A stretch of 24,228 nt of DNA from a virus (taxonomy: Duplodnaviria > Heunggongvirae > Uroviricota > Caudoviricetes): positions 1-24,228 of the IMG/VR virus record IMGVR_UViG_2541047889_000005; one strand, written 5' to 3'. A model generated the notes under the pieces. It was not told the origin of the DNA and did not search any database. It saw only the letters and a list, made by a program, of their open reading frames with translations. Every line of letters starts with the position of its first letter. The stretch's first letter is position 1. Made by a program: the position numbers and the translations under genes. Below are positions 2,566-24,228 of the stretch, piece after piece.

Positions 2566-2911
2566 TCTCTGCTCCTGTTGATACGGAAAGGGACACAGGC
2601 ACACCGTTATTCCGCCGCCCGGTCAGCTCCACCACCATTGAACCGTCAAAATTGCTGTTGATGGTGATGGAATCCAGCGTCAGCCGTGGCTCCCAGCGAC
2701 TCAGTGCCACATACACAGCCGACATGACCTGCAGGCGTAACGCCGGATTTTGTGGCTGATCTATTAAAGCCGACAGCAGGGAACCATATTCCCGGCGGGC
2801 AATGCGGCTACCCTGCGGTGTCAGCAGAATGTCCCGCACCGACTGGCGCAGATGGTCAATATCAGTAATAGCTTTACCGCTGGTATTGTTCATCCCGATA
2901 TAAAGCGTCAT
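2552..2911 (-). CDS. W: Baseplate wedge protein gpW (gp25-like)
   Basis: 119-aa ORF MTLYIGMNNTSGKAITDIDHLRQSVRDILLTPQGSRI...; start overlaps V stop (ATGA). Confidence 0.8.
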   Translation of the reverse strand: MTLYIGMNNTSGKAITDIDHLRQSVRDILLTPQGSRIARREYGSLLSALIDQPQNPALRLQVMSAVYVALSRWEPRLTLDSITINSNFDGSMVVELTGRRNNGVPVSLSVSTGAENGSD

Positions 2912-3486
2912 ACCGGGCCTCCGGTTGTGTCGCCGCCTTTCAGGACGCCAGTATGCTGATGCGCATCAACCACGATCCCGTTAGAACTCATTGCACCGCC
3001 GCCCTGGGTAACGCCACCATTGATCACCACTTCGCTGTTAATACGCGTGCGGTCAGCCTCCAGCACAAACTCACTGGTTTTCAGGGTGATGTTGTCGGCA
3101 GCCTCAATGACCATGGATTTGATGCCCCTGACATACCAGCGCCCGGTGGCGGGTTCGTATTCAAACCAGCCACCATCAGGATGTTCTGTCACGCAGGCTT
3201 CCGCCGACGTTGACGGCGGTGCGAACTGATTCGAATAGATGGCGGGCAACGCAAAGGCGGTTTCCAGATTGCCACCCAGGCTGAACAGCACAACCTGCTC
3301 GCCCACAGACGGTTTCCACCAGGTGCGCGATTTGCCCGCGCGCAGTGTCAGCCAGTTAATCCAGTTGGTTTCAAGGTCGCCCGTTTTCACCCGGCAAAGC
3401 CAGTTCTCCCGGTCCACCTCGGTGACTACACCAGTGCGGATCAGGTTGGTGATAAGGCGCATGATTTCAGTCAGTTGTGCATTCAT
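2908..3486 (-). CDS. V: Baseplate spike/assembly protein gpV
   Basis: ORF 2908..3564; probable start at ATG 3486 (MNAQLTEIMRLITNLIRTGVVTEVD...), which aligns with the P2 gpV N-terminus; AAGGA RBS upstream. Confidence 0.8.
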   Translation of the reverse strand: MNAQLTEIMRLITNLIRTGVVTEVDRENWLCRVKTGDLETNWINWLTLRAGKSRTWWKPSVGEQVVLFSLGGNLETAFALPAIYSNQFAPPSTSAEACVTEHPDGGWFEYEPATGRWYVRGIKSMVIEAADNITLKTSEFVLEADRTRINSEVVINGGVTQGGGAMSSNGIVVDAHQHTGVLKGGDTTGGPV

Positions 3487-3534
3487 GAGAGCGATCCTTG
3501 CACAACCGGGTAGAGTGATGTAATACAGAGCGTA

Positions 3535-3555
3535 TGTATGGAGAACCACACAAAA
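3535..3555. promoter_or_regulatory. Candidate late-promoter activator site (TGT-N12-ACA dyad; Ogr/B-type)
   Basis: tgtatggagaaccacacaaaa; shares TGT-N6-AACCACACAAA with the site at 10361-10380 in the O/P divergent region. Confidence 0.35.
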
Positions 3556-3581
3556 GAGAAACAATTTCTAAGGTATTTAAG

Positions 3582-4448
3582 ATGACACAAATCGCAATTT
3601 ATGGATTTAATTTCACTAAAAAAATCACATTTGACGGTGGTGAGTTAACTCCTATTTTCAGTTCATGGAGTGAGTTAAAAAAAAATGGCTGGGCTAATGA
3701 TAGGTACATCCTCACTGGTTTTTTCAAACCAAACTCGAATAACTACGCCACTCAACAGCAGCTTATTTTTGATTTACAAGCAGTTCTTAGTTTTATTGAA
3801 CAAAAAAATGTAATCATTTCAGGAGAACTTGAAAATGATGAAACCCCTTTCAATTTCAAACCATCTCTACCCAAAAAGCTTGACAAAAAAAGAGATAAGG
3901 GTGCGGGCATTATCATCATGGAAGATTATTTTGCACCAAACAGCCGAGAAAATTTTATTTGCTTAGCCATGGAAAAACTAAATAGTAAAGCCATGCTAAA
4001 ACAAGATGCCTTTAGAACATCATTTTTTAAATCAATGCTAGCTTTCCGCGACTCAATAAATTATATCGACGTCAGATATTATTTATTATTCTCGGCACTA
4101 GAAGCACTTTGCAGATTTATTAAAAATGACTACTCCCCTGCCAAAACACCACAAATAATCACTCAGGTTTTAAAAGAATATGGTTTTAATGTCGAAAAAA
4201 CAGGACATACATTAGCTCAAAGAAACATTATGCATTACTGCAAACTCCGTCACTCGCTGTTCCACAATGGTAAATACATTGCCTATCTTGATGAAAAAAA
4301 CTCAGATGGCAAAATTGAAATTCAAGATTACTCATCAAATTTGAATTTACTGGTGCCACTTGTACTAATGAAATTCATAGGATTTGATGACAATTATATA
4401 AACTGGGACTCATGGATTGATAGGAATCCATTTATCAGTAAAAAGTAA
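3582..4448 (+). CDS. Hypothetical protein, A+T-rich cargo gene inserted between tail genes V and S on the opposite strand
   Basis: ORF 3534..4448; likely ATG at 3582 (MTQIAIYGFNFTKKITFDGG...) with AGG RBS; strongly AT-rich compared with flanking GC-rich phage genes; no recognisable motif. Confidence 0.7.
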   Translation: MTQIAIYGFNFTKKITFDGGELTPIFSSWSELKKNGWANDRYILTGFFKPNSNNYATQQQLIFDLQAVLSFIEQKNVIISGELENDETPFNFKPSLPKKLDKKRDKGAGIIIMEDYFAPNSRENFICLAMEKLNSKAMLKQDAFRTSFFKSMLAFRDSINYIDVRYYLLFSALEALCRFIKNDYSPAKTPQIITQVLKEYGFNVEKTGHTLAQRNIMHYCKLRHSLFHNGKYIAYLDEKNSDGKIEIQDYSSNLNLLVPLVLMKFIGFDDNYINWDSWIDRNPFISKK

Positions 4449-4474
4449 ACTAAATTTTATAAATGTGGTTTTAT

Positions 4475-4921
4475 TTATCTCTGTAACCAATTTAGCAAAG
4501 CATCCTGAATGACAGTTTCCACATCATCATTTACGCCTAGGAGACGACGCTCTGCATAACGGACCTCCGGTCCTCTTCGACTGATGCGATCACGCAGGCC
4601 GTAGTGATGAACGCGGGCAATGCGCTGCACCTTACCTTCAAACTGCACGCTGGCAGAATCGGCGCTGGCGGCAGTTTTCAGGTATTTTGTGGTGCGCAGC
4701 TTTGTAAACATCTGACGTTTGATGCGCCCCTTTTTGCTGCGTGCTGTTACCCGTCGCGGCTCATAACTGCTGCCATCTGGATTGCGCTGCATCCTGATGT
4801 TCTGCTGCTGTGTCCGGCGCAGTTCCTGCGCCAGCTGGCGCATCATGCGGCTTCTTGCGGCTGGCTCCAGATTCGCCAGCAAGGCACTCAGCCAGTCGTC
4901 CACCTTCTGCAATTCAGCCAC
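4475..4921 (-). CDS. S: Tail completion protein gpS
   Basis: 148-aa ORF MAELQKVDDWLSALLANLEPAARSRMMRQLA...; position after R as in P2. Confidence 0.75.
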   Translation of the reverse strand: MAELQKVDDWLSALLANLEPAARSRMMRQLAQELRRTQQQNIRMQRNPDGSSYEPRRVTARSKKGRIKRQMFTKLRTTKYLKTAASADSASVQFEGKVQRIARVHHYGLRDRISRRGPEVRYAERRLLGVNDDVETVIQDALLNWLQR

Positions 4922-5345
4922 GTTTCACCGTCCACATTTCTTCAGGTTCATCAGGTTCCGCTATAGCTTCAACGCTCGACACACTGCCGTCAGTGCTGAC
5001 CAGCACACGCTCCGTCAGTTGCAGGTTCAGGCTGATATCACAGACATCGTTGCGCAGAATATCCACCTCAAAGGTGAATAGTTTTTCCCGTAACGCCGGG
5101 TTATTGATGGCATCGGGCTGGTTATCCCGCAGCCACAGCAAAACCGGGGCCATCAGCAGATTCTGGTCGCCGCTGAAATCCTCAATCACTGCGTTCAGCG
5201 TGTAACGGTACTCCCACGACATGGAGCTGGTCCCCGTGGCAACCAGCGAACCGTTATCCACAAACAGATGCAGTTTGTCCGGGTTATTGCGGACATAAGG
5301 CACTGCTTTATTAAGGGCGTGGCGCAGGGATTGTGGTTTGTTCAC
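4914..5345 (-). CDS. R: Tail completion protein gpR
   Basis: ORF 4914..5366; probable GTG start at 5345 preceded by AGGAGC, giving (M)NKPQSLRHALNKAV..., which matches the P2 gpR N-terminus. Confidence 0.75.
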   Translation of the reverse strand: MNKPQSLRHALNKAVPYVRNNPDKLHLFVDNGSLVATGTSSMSWEYRYTLNAVIEDFSGDQNLLMAPVLLWLRDNQPDAINNPALREKLFTFEVDILRNDVCDISLNLQLTERVLVSTDGSVSSVEAIAEPDEPEEMWTVKRG

Positions 5346-10360: not shown

Positions 10361-10380
10361 TGTACCGACAACCACACAAA
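10361..10380. promoter_or_regulatory. Candidate late-promoter activator site in the O/P divergent intergenic region (TGT-N12-ACA)
   Basis: tgtaccgacaaccacacaaa; P2-family late promoters carry a TGT-N12-ACA dyad bound by Ogr/B-type zinc-finger activators; the same extended motif recurs at 3535-3555. Confidence 0.4.
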
Positions 10381-10424
10381 CCGCAGGCGGGGAAAGCCTT
10401 CATTCAAGGCTGTAGGTTTGTGCC

Positions 10425-12191
10425 ATGAACACCACACTGACACCCGCAGATCTCGATCCCCGTCGGCAGGCCATGCTGCTGTACTTTCAGGGATACCGCG
10501 TCGCCCGCATTGCTGAAATGCTGGGCGAGAAAGTTGCAACCGTTCACAGCTGGAAAAAACGCGACAAGTGGGGTGACTATGGGCCGCTGGATCAGATGCA
10601 GCTCACCACCGCCGCACGCTACTGCCAGCTCATTATGAAGGAGCACAAAGAAGGGAAAGATTTCAAAGAGATTGACCTGCTGGCGCGCCAGTCGGAGCGC
10701 CACGCGCGGATCGGCAAGTTTAACAATGGCGGCAACGAAGCCGACTTAAACCCTAACGTCGCCAACCGCAACAAAGGCCCACGCCGTCAGCCGGAAAAGA
10801 ATGTTTTCACCGATGAGCAGATTGAGAAGCTGGAAGAAATCTTCCATTCCTCCATGTTCAACTACCAGCGCCACTGGTGGGAAGCCGGAAAAACCAACCG
10901 CATCCGCAACCTGCTGAAGTCACGCCAGATCGGCGCGACCTTTTACTTTGCCCGTGAAGCCCTGATTGACGCTCTGCTTACCGGACGTAACCAGATTTTC
11001 CTTTCTGCCAGTAAGGCACAGGCCCACGTCTTCAAACAGTACATCATCGACTTTGCCAAAGAAGTGGAGGTGGAGCTGAAAGGCGATCCGATGGTGCTTC
11101 CCAACGGGGCCACACTGTATTTCCTCGGAACCAATGCCCGCACGGCCCAGAGTTACCACGGCAACCTGTATCTGGATGAATATTTCTGGATACCGAAATT
11201 CCAGGAGCTGCGCAAAGTGGCTTCCGGTATGGCTATTCACAAAAAATGGCGACAAACCTATTTTTCCACGCCATCCAGCCTGACCCACAGTGCTTATCCG
11301 TTCTGGTCCGGTGCGCTGTTCAACCGTGGACGCAACAAAGCTGACAAGGTGGACATCGACCTGTCCCACAGCAATCTGGCCCCCGGCCTGCTGTGCGCAG
11401 ACGGGCAATACCGCCAGATAGTCACCGTGGAAGATGCGGTGCGCGGCGGCTGTAACCTGTTCGACCTCGACCAGCTACGCATGGAGTACAGCCCGGACGA
11501 ATACCAGAACCTGCTGATGTGCGAGTTCGTGGACGATCTCGCGTCCGTGTTCCCGCTCAGCGAACTGCAGGCGTGCATGGTGGACAGTTGGGAAGTCTGG
11601 ACCGACTTTCATGCACTGGCCCTGCGCCCGTTTGGCTGGCGCGAGGTGTGGATCGGTTATGACCCGGCAAAAGGTACGCAGAACGGCGACAGCGCCGGAT
11701 GCGTGGTGGTGGCACCACCAGCCGTGCCAGGCGGTAAGTTTCGCATTCTTGAGCGTCACCAGTGGCGCGGGATGGACTTCCGCGCCCAGGCGGACGCCAT
11801 CAAAAAACTGACCGAACAGTACAACGTGACCTATATCGGCATCGACTCGACAGGTGTCGGTCACGGGGTTTACGAGAACGTGAAAGCGTTTTTTCCAGCC
11901 GTCCGGGAGTTTGTCTACAACCCCAACGTTAAAAACGCCCTGGTACTCAAGGCCTACGACATTATCAGCCACCGCCGTCTGGAGTTTGACGCCGGACACA
12001 CCGACATAGCGCAGTCATTTATGGCAATCCGTCGCGCCACCACCGCCAGCGGCAACCGCCCGACCTATGAAGCCAGCCGCAGCGAAGAAGCCAGCCACGC
12101 CGATCTGGCCTGGGCAACGATGCACGCTCTGTTTAACGAACCGCTGCAGGGCGAATCCGCCAATACCAGCAATATTGTGGAGATTTTTTGA
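10425..12191 (+). CDS. P: Terminase large (ATPase) subunit gpP
   Basis: 588 aa; N-terminal MNTTLTPADLDPRRQAMLLYFQGYRVARIAEMLG... and overall size typical of P2 gpP; divergent from O. Confidence 0.85.
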   Translation: MNTTLTPADLDPRRQAMLLYFQGYRVARIAEMLGEKVATVHSWKKRDKWGDYGPLDQMQLTTAARYCQLIMKEHKEGKDFKEIDLLARQSERHARIGKFNNGGNEADLNPNVANRNKGPRRQPEKNVFTDEQIEKLEEIFHSSMFNYQRHWWEAGKTNRIRNLLKSRQIGATFYFAREALIDALLTGRNQIFLSASKAQAHVFKQYIIDFAKEVEVELKGDPMVLPNGATLYFLGTNARTAQSYHGNLYLDEYFWIPKFQELRKVASGMAIHKKWRQTYFSTPSSLTHSAYPFWSGALFNRGRNKADKVDIDLSHSNLAPGLLCADGQYRQIVTVEDAVRGGCNLFDLDQLRMEYSPDEYQNLLMCEFVDDLASVFPLSELQACMVDSWEVWTDFHALALRPFGWREVWIGYDPAKGTQNGDSAGCVVVAPPAVPGGKFRILERHQWRGMDFRAQADAIKKLTEQYNVTYIGIDSTGVGHGVYENVKAFFPAVREFVYNPNVKNALVLKAYDIISHRRLEFDAGHTDIAQSFMAIRRATTASGNRPTYEASRSEEASHADLAWATMHALFNEPLQGESANTSNIVEIF

Positions 12192-13213
12192 TGAAAGAAC
12201 ATATCGCGCCAGACGAAACCGTAACTGCAGAAGAAACTAAAAAATCCGTTGCGGAGGCTTTCAGCTTTGGTGATCCCATTCCTGTACTGGACCGCCGCGA
12301 ACTGCTGGACTATGTGGAATGCGTACAGATGGATCGCTGGTATGAGCCGCCCGTCAGCTTTGACGGACTGGCGCGCACCTTCCGCGCCGCCGTGCACCAC
12401 AGCTCCCCGATCAGTGTTAAGCGTGACATTATCAGCAGTACCTATATTCCACATCGCCTTCTCAGCCAGCAGGCATTTACCCGTTTTGTGCAGGACTATC
12501 TGGTTTTTGGTAACGCCTACCTGGAGAAACGCACGAACCGCTTTGGTGAAGTTATTTCGCTGGAACCTGCACTGGCAAAATACACCCGGCGCGGACTTGA
12601 CCTTGAAACATACTGGTTTGTGCAATACAGCCTGACGACACAGCCGTATCAGTTCACAAAAGGTAATGTCTTCCACCTGATGGAGCCGGATATCAACCAG
12701 GAGATTTATGGTCTGCCGGGTTACCTTTCTGCCATTCCGTCAGCTCTGCTCAACGAATCCGCCACGCTGTTCCGCCGCAAGTATTACATCAACGGCAGTC
12801 ATGCAGGCTTCATCATGTACATGACCGACGCCGCGCAGAACCAGGAGGATGTAAACAACCTCCGTAACGCGATGAAAAGCGCCAAAGGTCCAGGCAACTT
12901 CCGTAATCTGTTTATGTACTCGCCTAACGGCAAAAAAGACGGGCTTCAGATTATCCCGTTATCAGAAGTCGCAGCGAAGGATGAGTTTCTGAATATCAAG
13001 AACGTGAGCCGGGACGACATGATGGCAGCACACCGAGTGCCGCCGCAAATGATGGGGATTATGCCGAATAATGTTGGTGGATTTGGGGATGTGGAGAAAG
13101 CGAGTAAAGTTTTTGTGAGAAATGAACTGATCCCGCTGCAGAAGAGATTATTCGAGATAAATGTATGGCTAGGAGAAAATGTCATTACTTTCCAGCCATA
13201 CAACTTAGATTAA
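12191..13213 (+). CDS. Q: Portal protein gpQ
   Basis: ORF 12188..13213; ATG at 12191 overlaps the P stop (TGATG); about 340 aa as in P2 gpQ. Confidence 0.85.
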   Translation: MKEHIAPDETVTAEETKKSVAEAFSFGDPIPVLDRRELLDYVECVQMDRWYEPPVSFDGLARTFRAAVHHSSPISVKRDIISSTYIPHRLLSQQAFTRFVQDYLVFGNAYLEKRTNRFGEVISLEPALAKYTRRGLDLETYWFVQYSLTTQPYQFTKGNVFHLMEPDINQEIYGLPGYLSAIPSALLNESATLFRRKYYINGSHAGFIMYMTDAAQNQEDVNNLRNAMKSAKGPGNFRNLFMYSPNGKKDGLQIIPLSEVAAKDEFLNIKNVSRDDMMAAHRVPPQMMGIMPNNVGGFGDVEKASKVFVRNELIPLQKRLFEINVWLGENVITFQPYNLD

Positions 13214-13217
13214 TACT

Positions 13218-13249
13218 ATTACAGACACTTTCGTGAAAGTGTCTGTAAT
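13218..13249. terminator. Perfect 15-bp-stem inverted repeat between convergent Q and RelA/SpoT-like gene (putative bidirectional terminator)
   Basis: attacagacactttc-gt-gaaagtgtctgtaat, flanked by an A6 run on plus (U-run on the minus transcript). Confidence 0.55.
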
Positions 13250-13261
13250 CAAAAAATGAAA

Positions 13262-14266
13262 TTATTCTTCTGAATCATCATAAACATCCATTCCTTCGGT
13301 CTGATTTCTAATATAAGAAGTCCCCATAGAATTAGCAATCGCAGTCCGAATTAACCCTACATGAGTGAAAAACACCCCTAACCTAGCACGCTTTAACTCA
13401 GACTCATCATCATAGTCATCTTCATTACTTATAATTCTTCTAACCATTGCCTTATCTTCGTCAATAGCCGAAGGTAGCCCACTCTTTAAAGCGTCAATAC
13501 ACTCACCTACAGTTATAATTTTATTTTTAATTAATTCAGAAAGCAAATCATCATAATTTTCATCATCAGATTTATTATCAGGTGGTAATTCACTTGCAGC
13601 TATCATTTTCAGCAATTCTACGTCAAGCATAGTTCCTCTATCTAGTCTGCTTGTCTCAACATACCCCTCACGCTCTGATAACACTCTTTCAAATTCGAAA
13701 TCAACGACTTCAAGCAAAGCAGATACTCTATTAATTGCTCGCCTAAGAGGAAGTGGAACACTTTGCTCTTTTTTGTATTGCAGTTTATGAGATGCTGCAG
13801 CCCAAATATGCTGAGAAAGCGTTCGTATTTGCACCTCCACTTTCATATTTTTAAAATCACTAAAGGATGGAACTCTTAGCCATTCTTCTGGAGGTTGTAT
13901 TACATAATGATGAGATTGGTACCCAAATCTATCCTCATCCAGTTCATCAAGTTTATTCTCTTGCTTCAAAATAATGAAATGTTCTTTCAGACAAGATATA
14001 ACCTTTTCAACATCTCGCTTAAATAGCATTATTAATCGGATTCCAACATAATCATCCAAGTCAACTATTGACTCAATCTTTAGAGGTTTTCGGTTATCCT
14101 TATTAATAATAGAACTTAATGTTTTGACACGGCTTTCAATTGGAACCCCTAAAGACAATTTATTCTCCGACAAAATAACATCAATTTGCTCAACCATAAC
14201 TCGTCTGAACAATTCCGCAACTGAGCCGTAAATTGAATGCTGTTCTTTTAATTCTTCGTCTGTCAT
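13262..14266 (-). CDS. RelA/SpoT-fold nucleotidyltransferase (small alarmone synthetase-like; candidate toxSAS/CapRel-like fused toxin-antitoxin)
   Basis: 334 aa; synthetase-fold motifs ESRVKTLSSIINK, DYVGIRLIMLF, FGYQSHHYVI, EVQIRTLSQHIWAAASHKLQYK; about 130-aa acidic C-terminal extension; AT-rich; lies between portal gene and cos. Confidence 0.7.
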   Translation of the reverse strand: MTDEELKEQHSIYGSVAELFRRVMVEQIDVILSENKLSLGVPIESRVKTLSSIINKDNRKPLKIESIVDLDDYVGIRLIMLFKRDVEKVISCLKEHFIILKQENKLDELDEDRFGYQSHHYVIQPPEEWLRVPSFSDFKNMKVEVQIRTLSQHIWAAASHKLQYKKEQSVPLPLRRAINRVSALLEVVDFEFERVLSEREGYVETSRLDRGTMLDVELLKMIAASELPPDNKSDDENYDDLLSELIKNKIITVGECIDALKSGLPSAIDEDKAMVRRIISNEDDYDDESELKRARLGVFFTHVGLIRTAIANSMGTSYIRNQTEGMDVYDDSEE

Positions 14267-14383
14267 CTATCTTACCTAACTTATATAAATGAATCAGATA
14301 TAAAACATTGCATAATTTTAATTCAAGTGGACAACATATAAATTATCCGATCTAAACCACTTAAACAACAGGTTTTGCGCGCG

Positions 14384-14402
14384 CTCGTATCCCCGCCACG
14401 CC
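14384..14402 (-). other. cos-like cohesive-end site (P2/186 type)
   Basis: Minus-strand GGCGTGGCGGGGATACGAG; the first 13 nt match my recollection of the P2/186 19-nt cos core (GGCG[A/T]GGCGGGGA...); located next to the portal gene as expected. Confidence 0.5.
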
Positions 14403-14451
14403 TGCCCGCTTTATGTAGTAGTTTTCATGCAGGTGCATGATCTACGCGAAA

Positions 14452-14471
14452 GCCCGCCAGTTCTGGCGGGC
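14452..14471 (-). terminator. GC-rich hairpin downstream of the membrane-protein gene (putative terminator)
   Basis: gcccgccag-tt-ctggcgggc; followed on the minus transcript by UUUCGCG. Confidence 0.4.
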
Positions 14472-14519
14472 CCTAGCAAAAACGATCCTCAAACGATCAT
14501 GCGATCTCATGCAGCATAG

Positions 14520-15362
14520 TCATGCACGATCATTTGACTCAGCATCTGCTGCACGCTTGCTGCGCGAAGATGCACTTTTACTATCAATCTTTCGACAGTT
14601 CTTTCTATCCCTGGCTTCATTTTCTTTAAATTTGTTATATGTCTCAGTATCAAAAAACGAAATTGTTTCAACCTCATCTTTTGGTATGAGCACACGGAAA
14701 TCTTCGATATTAAGCCGAGACATTCCACTTATCACACCACTATCAAGATAATGTTGGTGATAGTTAGTCGTGATACTAATCGTTAGATCATCTTTATCCC
14801 GATATCCGCTTAACATCGGGAGAAGTTCAAGGTGCTCTGAAAGCCCGTTTTCTAACGCCGGACAAGTAACAAGACCAACATAGATTTTGCGAGACGACAG
14901 AGTTGCTATGATCGGAAACTGTCTTGCGGACGCTTCCATGAGTAATGATTCGAAAGCGTTATTACCCACAGCTTTAGCTAAGGCATCCCAGCGACGATCT
15001 CCACGTGATGTGCGTAACTTATTTCCAAAACCTGAAATCGCAGCGAGGACAATTGAAATCATAACCCATGCTATCTGTTTGATTTCATTTATTCTTTGAA
15101 GTTTGTCTTTCGATGAAGACAACATGCCATTAAAACTGTCAGGTGTTAGATTCAAGGCATTAGCCAGCCAACGAAACCCTCCGCTGACGTTCAAAATAAA
15201 GGTGAAAAAACCGCCAAGGAGAAAAAAAACGATACCCCAGGCAGCCACAAAAAAATAAGCGTCCCAGCCGTTGGAACGCTTATATCGGTATCTTGTTGAA
15301 AGTGATAGGTTTACATAAATAAAACCACTAACCAAAATCACTGCTAAAAGTAATGTTGCCAT
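14520..15362 (-). CDS. Hypothetical membrane protein: three N-terminal TM helices plus about 165-aa cytoplasmic domain
   Basis: 280 aa; hydrophobic segments ATLLLAVILVSGFIYV, AYFFVAAWGIVFFLLGGFFTFIL, IAWVMISIVLAAISGF; start overlaps the stop of the upstream 71-aa gene (TAATG). Confidence 0.65.
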   Translation of the reverse strand: MATLLLAVILVSGFIYVNLSLSTRYRYKRSNGWDAYFFVAAWGIVFFLLGGFFTFILNVSGGFRWLANALNLTPDSFNGMLSSSKDKLQRINEIKQIAWVMISIVLAAISGFGNKLRTSRGDRRWDALAKAVGNNAFESLLMEASARQFPIIATLSSRKIYVGLVTCPALENGLSEHLELLPMLSGYRDKDDLTISITTNYHQHYLDSGVISGMSRLNIEDFRVLIPKDEVETISFFDTETYNKFKENEARDRKNCRKIDSKSASSRSKRAADAESNDRA

Positions 15363-15577
15363 TATCTGGTTCTATTAGTTTTCTCTTTTACAGTGCTCGT
15401 TTTGATGCCTTCAAGCTTATCCATCTGTGCCTTGATGGCATCCATTGCTCTTTTGTTAGACAAGTCTACGGACACAAAACCATCTTTACTAAGATTGAGT
15501 TTGTCCTGGTTCTCTTTAAGAACCCTTGCCAGACGTTCAACTGGGTTACCCAGGCTAAATGCGGCGATGCTTGACAT
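15362..15577 (-). CDS. Hypothetical small protein (71 aa), translationally coupled to the downstream membrane protein
   Basis: ATG preceded by a strong GGGGGAG RBS; charged and soluble; 270-bp AT-rich intergenic region upstream. Confidence 0.6.
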   Translation of the reverse strand: MSSIAAFSLGNPVERLARVLKENQDKLNLSKDGFVSVDLSNKRAMDAIKAQMDKLEGIKTSTVKEKTNRTR

Positions 15578-22065: not shown

Positions 22066-22210
22066 AAGGCAACATTCCTTCTAGATATGGCTTGTGGCGA
22101 GCCGTTGTTTGTCGTGATTAGTAGTGAAGGCTCCAAAAGAACACTTCTGGTTCAACTTTAAGATCGCTTTTGGAATCTGTCAACGAATTTTGGATTTCTT
22201 TGGAGGACTT
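22066..22210. promoter_or_regulatory. Lysis-lysogeny switch region (face-to-face lytic and lysogenic promoters and operators)
   Basis: About 145-bp AT-rich divergent intergenic region between apl (minus) and cI (plus), as in 186 pR/pL; individual promoters and operators not resolved. Confidence 0.45.
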
Positions 22211-22780
22211 GTGGATTTCAATAGCGGCGGTAAGAAAGCCATAGAACGTTTAGTTGAAGCATATGGGTTCGGTACTCGTCAGGCTCTCTGTGATCATTTA
22301 GGTGTTTCTAAGAGCACCATGGCAACGCGCTATATGCGTGATATTTTTCCAGCAGATTGGGTAATCCAGTGCGCCCTTGAAACGGGCACCTCGCTTAATT
22401 GGCTAACAACAGGGCATGGTTCAAAGCAAGCATCAGCAAATACAAATACTATAGAAGTAGAAAAATATTTATTGTCTGATGGAGCATTGCAGAAAGACGG
22501 TTTTTATATTTTTGATAAGGGATTTCTACCCTCTACGTTTAAAAAACCTTTTGTCATCACAGATAACAATTCTGAATTTATTTGTGATAAAGAATTTGAT
22601 GATATACGTGATGGTAAATGGGTAATAAGTATTGATGGCGAAATAACGATCCGTGACATTACTCGTTTACCCGGTGGAAGAATCTTCGTCGAGGGTGGAA
22701 ACAGAGTCTTCGAATGCAAGATAGAAGACATTGAAATAATTGGTAAAATTATAAGTTTAACAGTCAAGTATGTTAAATAG
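22211..22780 (+). CDS. cI: Immunity repressor CI (186 type)
   Basis: ORF 22124..22780; probable GTG start at 22211 after a GGAGGA RBS gives about 189 aa; N-terminal HTH (LGVSKSTMATRYMRD...LNWLTTGHG) and a C-terminal domain. Confidence 0.7.
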   Translation: MDFNSGGKKAIERLVEAYGFGTRQALCDHLGVSKSTMATRYMRDIFPADWVIQCALETGTSLNWLTTGHGSKQASANTNTIEVEKYLLSDGALQKDGFYIFDKGFLPSTFKKPFVITDNNSEFICDKEFDDIRDGKWVISIDGEITIRDITRLPGGRIFVEGGNRVFECKIEDIEIIGKIISLTVKYVK

Positions 22781-22987: not shown

Positions 22988-23175
22988 TTTTTGTTTTTAT
23001 ATCTGCGTCTAAAATAAAAATGAGCCGCAGGTTAACCGCAAAAGTTACATGCTCACATAGCAAAAAGAATAGCCAACTTCATTATGGCTTCAGTGAGATG
23101 TATGGTCGTAGGATTTCATACATTGACACTGGTTATATATACAGTAAAAATGCTCTCTACTGGAGGGCATTTTTT

Positions 23176-24228
23176 ATGGCAGTACGAAAACTCACCACAG
23201 GGAAATGGCTTTGCGAATGTTACCCCGCCGGACGAAGTGGGCGTCGTGTGCGTAAACAATTCGCCACCAAAGGCGAAGCTCTGGCTTTTGAGCGTCACAC
23301 GATGGAAGAAACCGAATCAAAGCCCTGGCTGGGCGAATCAGTGGATCGTCGAACCCTGAAAGACGTGGTTGAGCTATGGTTCAAACTACATGGTAAATCT
23401 CTGACTGCTGGACAGCATGTCTATGACAAATTGCTGCTGATGGTTGACGCTCTAGGCAATCCTCTTGCAACCGATCTCACCTCTAAAATGTTTGCCCACT
23501 ATCGAGATAAACGCCTTACTGGTGAAATCTACTTCAGTGAAAAATGGAAGAAAGGAGCAAGCCCAGTTACTGTTAACCTGGAGCAAAGCCATCTAAGCAG
23601 CGTTTTCAGAGAACTTTCCCGCCTGGGTGAATGGACACTTCCAAACCCATTAGAGAAGATGCGCAAATTCACTATCGCAGAAAAGGAAATGGCATGGCTT
23701 ACACATGAGCAGATCATCGAATTACTGTCTGACTGCAAACGTCAGAACCCAATTCTGGCACTGGTGGTAAAAATATGTCTAAGTACAGGCGCACGTTGGC
23801 GAGAAGCAATCAATCTTACCCGCTCACAGGTCACCAAGTACCGAATCACCTTTGTGAGAACGAAGGGGAAGAAAAACAGAAGCATCCCTATCAGTAAAGA
23901 GCTTTACGAAGAGATCATGGCGCTTGATGGGTTCAATTTCTTCACAGACTGCTATTTTCAATTTTTATCCGTGATGGAAAAAACGTCTATCGTGCTCCCT
24001 CGCGGTCAACTCACACACGTTCTGCGCCATACGTTTGCGGCGCACTTCATGATGTCGGGTGGAAACATTCTGGCCTTACAAAAAATTCTCGGACACCACG
24101 ATATAAAAATGACTATGCGTTACGCACATCTGGCACCGGATCATCTGGAAACGGCGCTCCGTTTCAATCCTCTGGCAACGCTGCCAAGTGGCGACAAAGT
24201 GGCGGCAGCGGTTGGCATTACCCCGTAA
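23176..24228 (+). CDS. int: Tyrosine integrase (P2 family)
   Basis: ORF 23020..24228; ATG at 23176 after a GGAGGG RBS (MAVRKLTTGKWLCECYPAGRSGRRV...); C-terminal catalytic region ...HVLRHTFAAHFMMSGGNILALQKILGHHDIKMTMRYAHL (R-H-R-Y type); stop at the window's right edge. Confidence 0.85.
   Translation: MAVRKLTTGKWLCECYPAGRSGRRVRKQFATKGEALAFERHTMEETESKPWLGESVDRRTLKDVVELWFKLHGKSLTAGQHVYDKLLLMVDALGNPLATDLTSKMFAHYRDKRLTGEIYFSEKWKKGASPVTVNLEQSHLSSVFRELSRLGEWTLPNPLEKMRKFTIAEKEMAWLTHEQIIELLSDCKRQNPILALVVKICLSTGARWREAINLTRSQVTKYRITFVRTKGKKNRSIPISKELYEEIMALDGFNFFTDCYFQFLSVMEKTSIVLPRGQLTHVLRHTFAAHFMMSGGNILALQKILGHHDIKMTMRYAHLAPDHLETALRFNPLATLPSGDKVAAAVGITP

Follow-up and report, generated by a model that had tools for sequence, protein, structure and literature searches.

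What does a lone AT-rich gene do between the tail genes of a P2-like prophage, on the strand opposite to theirs, and how did it come to be there? The question is raised by a 24,228-nt stretch of viral DNA (Caudoviricetes; IMG/VR record IMGVR_UViG_2541047889_000005), which we analyzed at its full length and refer to as the window. Over positions 2900-5000 the window is 100% identical to E. coli strain BS15R-A, in which the RefSeq gene order is gpW, gpV, WP_000192048.1, gpS and gpR, and it is a P2/186-like E. coli prophage. A preliminary description of this DNA had noted a plus-strand open reading frame (ORF) for 288 amino acids (aa) between V and S, and had considered a single-gene abortive-infection or lysogenic-conversion function plausible. 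The ORF is open and is the same coding sequence in RefSeq. We favor abortive infection, as all elements of the HEPN RNase signature are found in the protein: by analogy with characterized proteins, and taking the whole chain of argument together, this cargo gene is reasonably likely to encode a one-gene, abortive-infection-type anti-phage HEPN nuclease. The gene and its two anchors are:

2908..3486, minus strand: gpV, baseplate assembly protein, the left anchor (RefSeq annotation of the identical region)
3582..4448, plus strand: the cargo gene, an intact ORF for 288 aa (RefSeq coding sequence WP_000192048.1, hypothetical protein; PHROG 4373)
4475..4921, minus strand: gpS, virion morphogenesis/tail completion protein, the right anchor (RefSeq annotation and P2 gene order)

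The cargo gene stands tail-to-tail with S and head-to-head with V, so that the "convergent ends" of V and S in the preliminary description hold for S but not for V, which is divergent. Its A/T-rich composition was borne out by calculation: GC content in sliding windows is 0.31-0.34 over 3600-4500, compared to 0.54-0.60 on either side, and the interval as a whole has a GC content of 0.335, compared to 0.570 for V and 0.549 for S. The gene itself has a GC content of 0.33, and its GC content at third codon positions is 0.31, compared to 0.59-0.66 for V, S, W and R. The protein is enriched in K, N, I, F and L and, as had been described, contains no segment resembling a transmembrane helix (maximum Kyte-Doolittle score of 1.24 in a 19-aa window). 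An alternative upstream ATG at 3534 would give 304 aa, and homologues begin at the methionine of 3582. The extension ("MYG.PH") seems conserved because it overlaps a dyad in the DNA, TGTATGG..CACACA at 3535-3552, that is discussed below.

Motifs and predicted fold of the cargo protein

In an AF2 model (predicted local distance difference test score, 89.7; predicted template modeling score, 0.89), the cargo protein consists of an alpha/beta domain at the N-terminus and a helical domain at the C-terminus, the second of which bears two motifs:

3582..3935, plus strand: N-terminal domain, approximately residues 1-118, mixed beta/alpha, with no recognizable relative
3939..4445, plus strand: C-terminal helical, HEPN-like domain, approximately residues 120-288, as predicted in the AF2 model
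4101..4115, plus strand: E174-A-L-C-R178, an Ex3[KR] motif, the second HEPN active-site element (from conservation and the motif definition in PMC3710099)
4248..4265, plus strand: R223-H-S-L-F-H228, an Rx4H HEPN catalytic motif that closes helix 216-229 and reads RNxxxH in most relatives

The earlier statement that the protein has no assignable motif did not hold, as Ex3R and RNxxxH together are the HEPN signature. According to Anantharaman et al. (2013; PMC3710099), HEPN domains have an Rx4-6H motif that ends helix-3 and carries a polar residue (N, D or H) after the arginine, an upstream acidic Ex3[KR] motif, and inserts between helices 2 and 3. The cargo protein has an Rx4-6H motif with a polar residue at this position, an Ex3[KR] motif upstream of it, and a helix that ends at the motif. 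In the predicted secondary structure, E174 lies in helix 162-181, followed by an extra helix (186-199), the helix that bears the arginine (216-229), a hairpin (233-246) and a further helix (251-265). The modeled placement of E174, R223 and H228 thus appears to match HEPN in helix order.

These motifs are also the best-conserved positions of the family, with E174-x3-R178 and R223-(N/H)-x-x-x-H228 standing out down to ~19% identity to the window protein. All four residues are invariant in the alignment of homologues (A1), and E174, R223 and H228 are each at least 90% conserved in a distant set (A2). The full R-(N/H)-xxx-H motif, with N or H after the arginine, is present in 46 of 48 distant relatives. 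Based on the motifs and the predicted fold together, the cargo protein very probably belongs to the HEPN superfamily.

If the resemblance to HEPN were superficial, the protein might instead be a non-catalytic lysogenic-conversion or exclusion factor, such as a binding protein that blocks superinfection or alters host physiology. We regard this as unlikely, since conservation at such distances centers on the two HEPN active-site motifs, which lie in the expected predicted helices. A helical bundle arising by chance would not be expected to retain both RNxxxH and Ex3R.

Searches with family members made contact with one kind of HEPN protein. Two of the 48 relatives touched the Pfam model HEPN_Apea (E value of 0.019) and two touched the PADLOC model Cas13-ApeA (E value of 0.006), in neither case significantly; a scan of 10 GC-rich relatives did not pinpoint the members that match HEPN_Apea. 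The best PDB sequence match was Ec2ApeA (E value of 0.21, over two motif segments only), in which RNalfHnG falls on ApeA R502-NLIV-H507-TG. R502 is the published catalytic residue of ApeA (bioRxiv 10.64898/2026.01.26.701840). We considered membership of the ApeA family and rejected it: the cargo protein has 288 aa compared to ~580, it has no match to the ApeA hidden Markov model (HMM), and hhalign gave no support. It is not filed under ApeA because this profile-profile test was negative.

For the N-terminal domain we detected neither a relative nor conserved residues of a catalytic type, and we presume that it is a sensor or oligomerization domain. A PDB sequence search with the full-length profile returned a single match, 2p1a (E value of 0.026, N-terminal part), which we judged to be due to chance. 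Searching PDB and BFVD with the AF2 model in Foldseek gave nothing significant.

A family of solo genes

The cargo protein matches phrog_4373, a family of unknown function, over its full length (E value of 2e-142). The family is small: its homologues form 78 clusters in a set of 5.8 billion proteins, and a set of 1.84 billion proteins yielded 194 of them as representatives at 50% identity, which apart from fragments are mostly ~280 aa long. Relatives in the same slot and on the same strand occur in a Klebsiella phage, another E. coli prophage and Salmonella phage RE-2010 (57%, 55% and 35% identity). Others lie elsewhere. A Halomonas homologue that is 42% identical (loci L004/L005, 8001-8858) is the first gene beside a divergent integron-type integrase (Phage_int_SAM_4 and Phage_integrase), an Acinetobacter homologue is a solo gene between housekeeping genes, and a Vibrio homologue adjoins an integrase in an island. 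Further members were found at the edge of a different Klebsiella prophage and beside toxin-antitoxin genes in a metagenome. Small cassette-like genes, including a cupin and several acetyltransferases, lie downstream of the Halomonas homologue, which is probably an integron cassette.

No conserved neighbor gene was found in the E. coli, Klebsiella or Salmonella P2-like phages or in the distant contexts. Since no neighbor is common to these contexts, we conclude that the cargo protein works alone. This bears on the possibility that it is a HEPN toxin for prophage maintenance or inter-phage competition, acting in addiction or exclusion and held in check by an unrecognized antitoxin, which could be a small overlapping ORF, an antisense RNA or a host factor. 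The lack of a conserved neighbor in any context speaks against such a pair, and the free DNA around the gene amounts to only 95 bp upstream and 26 bp downstream. Positions 3300-4700 contain no tandem repeats, and no Rfam family was matched, giving no sign of an RNA antitoxin (as in AbiF-like type III toxin-antitoxin systems) or a riboswitch. Moreover, the additional N-terminal domain of ~118 aa is a feature of self-regulated solo HEPN defense proteins. An addiction toxin is therefore an improbable explanation.

The contexts outside phages also bear on a role on the phage's own side, in which a HEPN domain with an N-terminal CARF-like module would degrade cyclic-oligonucleotide signals or host RNAs during lytic growth, countering host immunity or serving RNA metabolism. 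We found no significant structure or sequence match to a CARF domain (Foldseek E values above 2), and the order of secondary-structure elements is not Rossmann-like. The gene runs opposite to the late operons, and its homologues also occur outside phages, in a solo chromosomal position and beside the integron-type integrase. In a published survey, anti-defense genes were present in only 28 of 1511 P2-like prophages. Such a phage-side factor seems highly improbable to us.

The S-V gap as a cassette slot

The preliminary description had pointed to a foreign ORF at the same position in P2, and the P2 annotation confirms this: Orf30 is encoded on the opposite strand between S and V and is non-essential. 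The P2 record runs from R-S through the rho-independent terminator of the O operon, Orf30 and the P_V activator-binding site to V, and the S-V gap is the boundary of two late operons, O...R-S and V-W-J-I-H. Orf30 and the window gene share the slot, the strand opposite to the tail genes and an AT-rich composition (the P2 interval has a GC content of 0.35), but the proteins are not homologous (BLASTP E value of 32), and P2 is missing from the tblastn matches. Three elements surround the gene in the window:

3487..3581, no strand: divergent control region of 95 bp, with the leftward late promoter P_V and a putative cargo promoter and ribosome-binding site
3535..3552, no strand: TGT-N12-ACA dyad TGTATGGAGAACCACACA, located 30 nt upstream of the cargo ATG and presumed to be where a late activator of Ogr/B type binds at P_V
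4449..4517, no strand: right end of the variable cassette, a 26-bp spacer and the last ~14 gpS codons (4475-4517)

Similarity to the empty allele ends at the V ATG on the left and restarts on the right only at 4518, within S, so the last ~14 gpS codons belong to the variable part. On the left, the region 3487..3581 beyond the V ATG cannot be aligned with the empty allele or with P2, and the block adjoining the ATG is partly conserved and common to the alleles of the cargo family. On the right, gpS C-termini diverge past an ERRLLG motif in all ten alleles compared. Because these C-termini differ by cargo allele, each cassette supplies its own C-terminal tail for the tail-completion protein; the codons concerned are themselves AT-rich and vary with the cargo. 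The cassette extends from the V start codon into the last ~14 codons of S, and a P_V control region and S 3' end of its own travel with it.

The dyad is the fixed element of this region. We compared nine gap alleles, comprising the window, the empty allele of CFT073, the TIR, SIR2, DUF6216, FRG and two-AAA-ATPase alleles, Klebsiella phage ST437-OXA245phi4.1 and Salmonella phage RE-2010. Each of the nine has a TGT-N12-ACA dyad at a distance of 47-49 nt from the V ATG, in surroundings that cannot be aligned between alleles. By analogy with the P2 annotation, the dyad at 3535-3552 would be the Ogr/B-type activator site of P_V. Two further dyads of this form, TGTACCGACAACCACACA at 10361-10378 and TGTGCCATGAACACCACA at 10419-10436, were seen between the divergent capsid-scaffold and terminase genes, which we assigned from colinearity with BS15R-A and locus L001. 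The P_V dyad resembles both of them, the first closely, and the late activator probably uses them as its sites at the P_O and P_P promoters. Because the cargo ATG is only 30 nt beyond the P_V dyad, the cargo promoter must overlap P_V. A consensus scan found no terminator-like hairpin after the cargo gene or after S.

How variable the slot is can be judged from two surveys. gpV homologues occur in 593 IMG/VR stretches, and we examined the 80 contigs with the most similar gpV (at least 94% identity), 79 of which also have gpS. The gap is empty in 58 of these 79 (~73%) and carries cargo in the remaining 21, in 13 distinct intervals of 553-1956 nt that all have a GC content of 0.31-0.36. In 20 of the 21, the longest ORF is opposite to V, as it is in P2. 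These flanks occur in 1044 of 5426 complete E. coli genomes, and only 23 of the 1044 hold the cargo allele of the window. A spread sample of E. coli had mostly empty gaps and otherwise genes for TIR, SIR2, DUF6216, FRG and hypothetical proteins. S-V cargo is almost always a single gene, 0.5-2.3 kb in length. The comparison of V-S intervals thus bears out the proposal of a recurrent moron slot.

The position of the gene between tail and baseplate genes could suggest a backbone role in phage morphogenesis or as a tail accessory. The empty slots effectively refute this: the gene is not conserved in all relatives, being missing from nearly three quarters of the closest ones, in which V and S are adjacent. 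Its foreign composition, the opposite strand, homologues outside phages and the failure to find a structural-protein homologue point the same way, and a backbone gene is scarcely credible here.

The cargo itself moves between prophages. Two prophages with a V gene that differs from the window's by 8.5% and 7%, respectively, hold cargo that is 100% and 99.5% identical, and S differs by 6% in one of the two. Near-identity of the cargo despite this divergence of V implies recent exchange as a cassette. Along with the AT-rich composition, the many empty gaps and the rarity of the allele, this upholds the recent horizontal acquisition that had been suggested for the gene. The ratio of nonsynonymous to synonymous substitution rates between close alleles was uninformative, as they have only 4 differences. 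In E. coli strains 61 and 64 (NZ_CP048326 and NZ_CP048322), V-cargo-S matches in two pieces with an annotated IS1 transposase inside, and in E. coli SCU-485 (NZ_CP053245) the region is 99.5% identical, 9 nt longer, and has no annotated cargo coding sequence. These three copies look like inactivated cargo genes.

Several of the other cargoes are of known defense types. The SIR2 cargo matches LmuA/ThsA models (E value of 1e-21), and a TIR protein and paired AAA ATPases also use the slot. A 598-aa single-gene OLD-type cargo (IMG/VR locus L064) matches PARIS AriAB and Gabija GajA (E value of 1e-25). This protein also has an ABC-type ATPase and a DUF3226 match and is an ATPase-Toprim protein in PADLOC, placing an OLD-family member in the S-V gap and not at the classical old locus. 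All of these, like the DUF6216, FRG and no-hit proteins, are unlike the cargo protein of the window. Two further cargoes, L033 (449 aa) and L067 (379 aa), were seen by eye to have RNIIIH or RDKIAH motifs near the C-terminus and (F/L)ES(I/Y)IL upstream. Their sequences suggest that additional solo HEPN-like proteins may use the slot. We rejected both as relatives of the cargo family, as hhalign of the family alignment against each sequence was non-significant, and PADLOC and Pfam gave no useful match.

With its small size, conserved flanks, high turnover and some known defense-type cargo, the S-V gap fits the definition of a phage-encoded hotspot (Rousset et al. 2022). Published P2 hotspots are gpA-gpQ (old/tin), Z/fun and a locus near cI/int. 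A 2026 survey describes P2-like defense systems "within the tail genes / downstream of GpL," and variation in the S-V gap was described for phage R18C, descriptively only. None of the literature that we examined treats this slot, which is known in outline, as a separate hotspot. Like the established hotspots, it is a short variable locus between conserved genes with high turnover, AT-rich cargo and known defense alleles. Unlike them, it is a separate locus with mostly single-gene cargo, and its cassette carries the P_V control region and the S 3' end.

Two of the published hotspot regions are also visible in the window. The portal gene gpQ, assigned from colinearity with locus L001, is a 341-aa ORF at 12188-13213. 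A few dozen nt downstream of it, at the classical old/tin hotspot, lies a gene for a 334-aa RelA_SpoT-domain protein (13262-14266, minus strand; Pfam E value of 7e-20; PADLOC candidate PDC-S33, E value of 2e-16). This protein presumably resembles fused toxSAS/CapRel-type defense proteins. It is accompanied by a 280-aa ORF with no hit (14520-15362, minus strand), within a low-GC stretch at ~12900-15400. The old/tin cargo of the window differs from that of strain BS15R-A, which means that the window derives from a different strain, and the NZ_CP063349 cargo coordinates fail to transfer beyond ~13 kb of the window because that hotspot holds different cargo. At the far end, a CI repressor gene (Phage_CI_repr and Phage_CI_C; 22124-22780, plus strand) lies in a low-GC stretch (0.33-0.40) and is followed by the integrase at 23020-24228. 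A DUF4041 gene that lies between cI and int in BS15R-A is absent from the window.

Proposed function and its precedents

Well-documented single-protein HEPN tRNases that act by abortive infection provide precedents for the function that we propose. HepS and Tha are both prophage-borne. HepS, on the Salmonella prophage Gifsy-1, has no partner gene and forms an inactive tetramer, which a phage tail-tip protein triggers to cut the anticodon loops of tRNAs (PMC13043305). Tha, encoded by S. aureus prophages, is activated by tail proteins. ApeA joins an N-terminal region of no known homology to a C-terminal HEPN domain; deoxydinucleotides activate it, and it cuts tRNAs in their anticodon loops (bioRxiv 10.64898/2026.01.26.701840). 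DARNA is switched on by single-stranded DNA that is presented by the phage single-stranded DNA-binding protein, and it cleaves tRNA anticodon loops in abortive infection.

Likenesses and differences can be set out for each. ApeA (Gao et al. 2020), like the cargo protein, is a single protein with an unmatched N-terminal region, a HEPN domain at the C-terminus and an R-N-x-x-x-H-x-G motif. It is much longer (~590 aa compared to 288), it has N-terminal and Mid domains that the cargo protein lacks, and no HMM or profile match between them is significant. ApeA has an insertion between H3 and H4, whereas the cargo protein has a predicted beta-hairpin after the motif. DARNA/PD-T7-3 and Tha resemble the cargo protein in fusing a HEPN RNase, predicted in our case, to a non-catalytic infection-sensing domain. 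However, DARNA has the opposite order, with HEPN at the N-terminus, as well as 456 aa and a dodecameric assembly, and PADLOC, including its PD-T models, gave no match to the cargo protein. For HepS, which we compared by description only, the motif is at R100-H105, whereas R223-H228 lies behind an additional domain of ~118 aa, and the host prophage is lambdoid and not P2-like. The HepS trigger, the siphovirus tail-tip protein J, need not apply to the cargo protein.

From these precedents we infer how the cargo protein could act, including its RNase activity, defense role, oligomeric state, trigger and RNA target. The lysogen would produce the protein in an inactive state, as a HEPN dimer or higher oligomer. 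When a competing phage infects, the protein would be switched on through its N-terminal domain, which might respond to a phage protein, a nucleic acid or a small molecule. The activated HEPN site would then cleave RNA without a metal, by analogy most probably at tRNA anticodon loops, and this cleavage would halt translation and block the spread of the phage. The resident phage itself would need to be free of the trigger or to keep the gene silent.

Several results weigh against this proposal. The cargo protein itself has no match in Pfam, NCBIfam or PADLOC at an E value of 1 or lower. The only HEPN models touched by any family member are of the ApeA type, with matches that are all individually non-significant (E values of 0.006-0.2). 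Likewise, hhalign of the family alignment (A4) against a small ApeA HEPN alignment rebuilt from fragments (A7) gave no support. The agreement with HEPN in the model is one of helix order. A promoter scan upstream of 3582 found no match to the sigma-70 consensus, and no cargo promoter was found. The slot links the gene to defense only in part, as many of its cargoes are membrane proteins (such as DUF6216) or proteins with no match, and Orf30 has neither an assigned function nor a Pfam match. Finally, a literature search found no paper that names WP_000192048.1 and no experimental data on the family.

A more specific version of the proposal would tie the gene to the phage cycle: a new solo-HEPN defense family with an N-terminal domain that senses a new infection cue and with expression wired to P2 late transcription. 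Here, activation at the P_V dyad, with its fixed distance from the V ATG and its proximity to the cargo ATG, could silence or induce the divergent cargo promoter, with an activator supplied by the resident prophage, by a superinfecting P2-like phage or by a P4-type satellite. We think it doubtful that all of these elements apply. If they did, the prophage would have a built-in means of avoiding self-killing or of targeting relatives and satellites.

The cargo gene most likely represents an uncharacterized new family among the solo HEPN abortive-infection nucleases of prophages, which as a kind are well known. Should the prediction fail, it would be one more AT-rich moron without an assigned function. 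The slot has an interest of its own, as the S-V inter-operon gap is a little-studied site of single-gene cargo in P2-like phages. Since it already holds TIR, SIR2 and OLD-type proteins along with many unknowns, it is a cheap place to mine for candidates. If our proposal is correct, the family would provide a compact, self-contained HEPN immunity protein of 288 aa that Pfam, NCBIfam and PADLOC 2.0 all lack. In E. coli, Salmonella and Klebsiella it is carried by P2-like prophages, and in a marine gammaproteobacterium it adjoins an integron-type integrase. With it, the few solo HEPN tRNases whose triggers are now being worked out (HepS, ApeA, DARNA and Tha) would also be joined by one with a new sensor domain.

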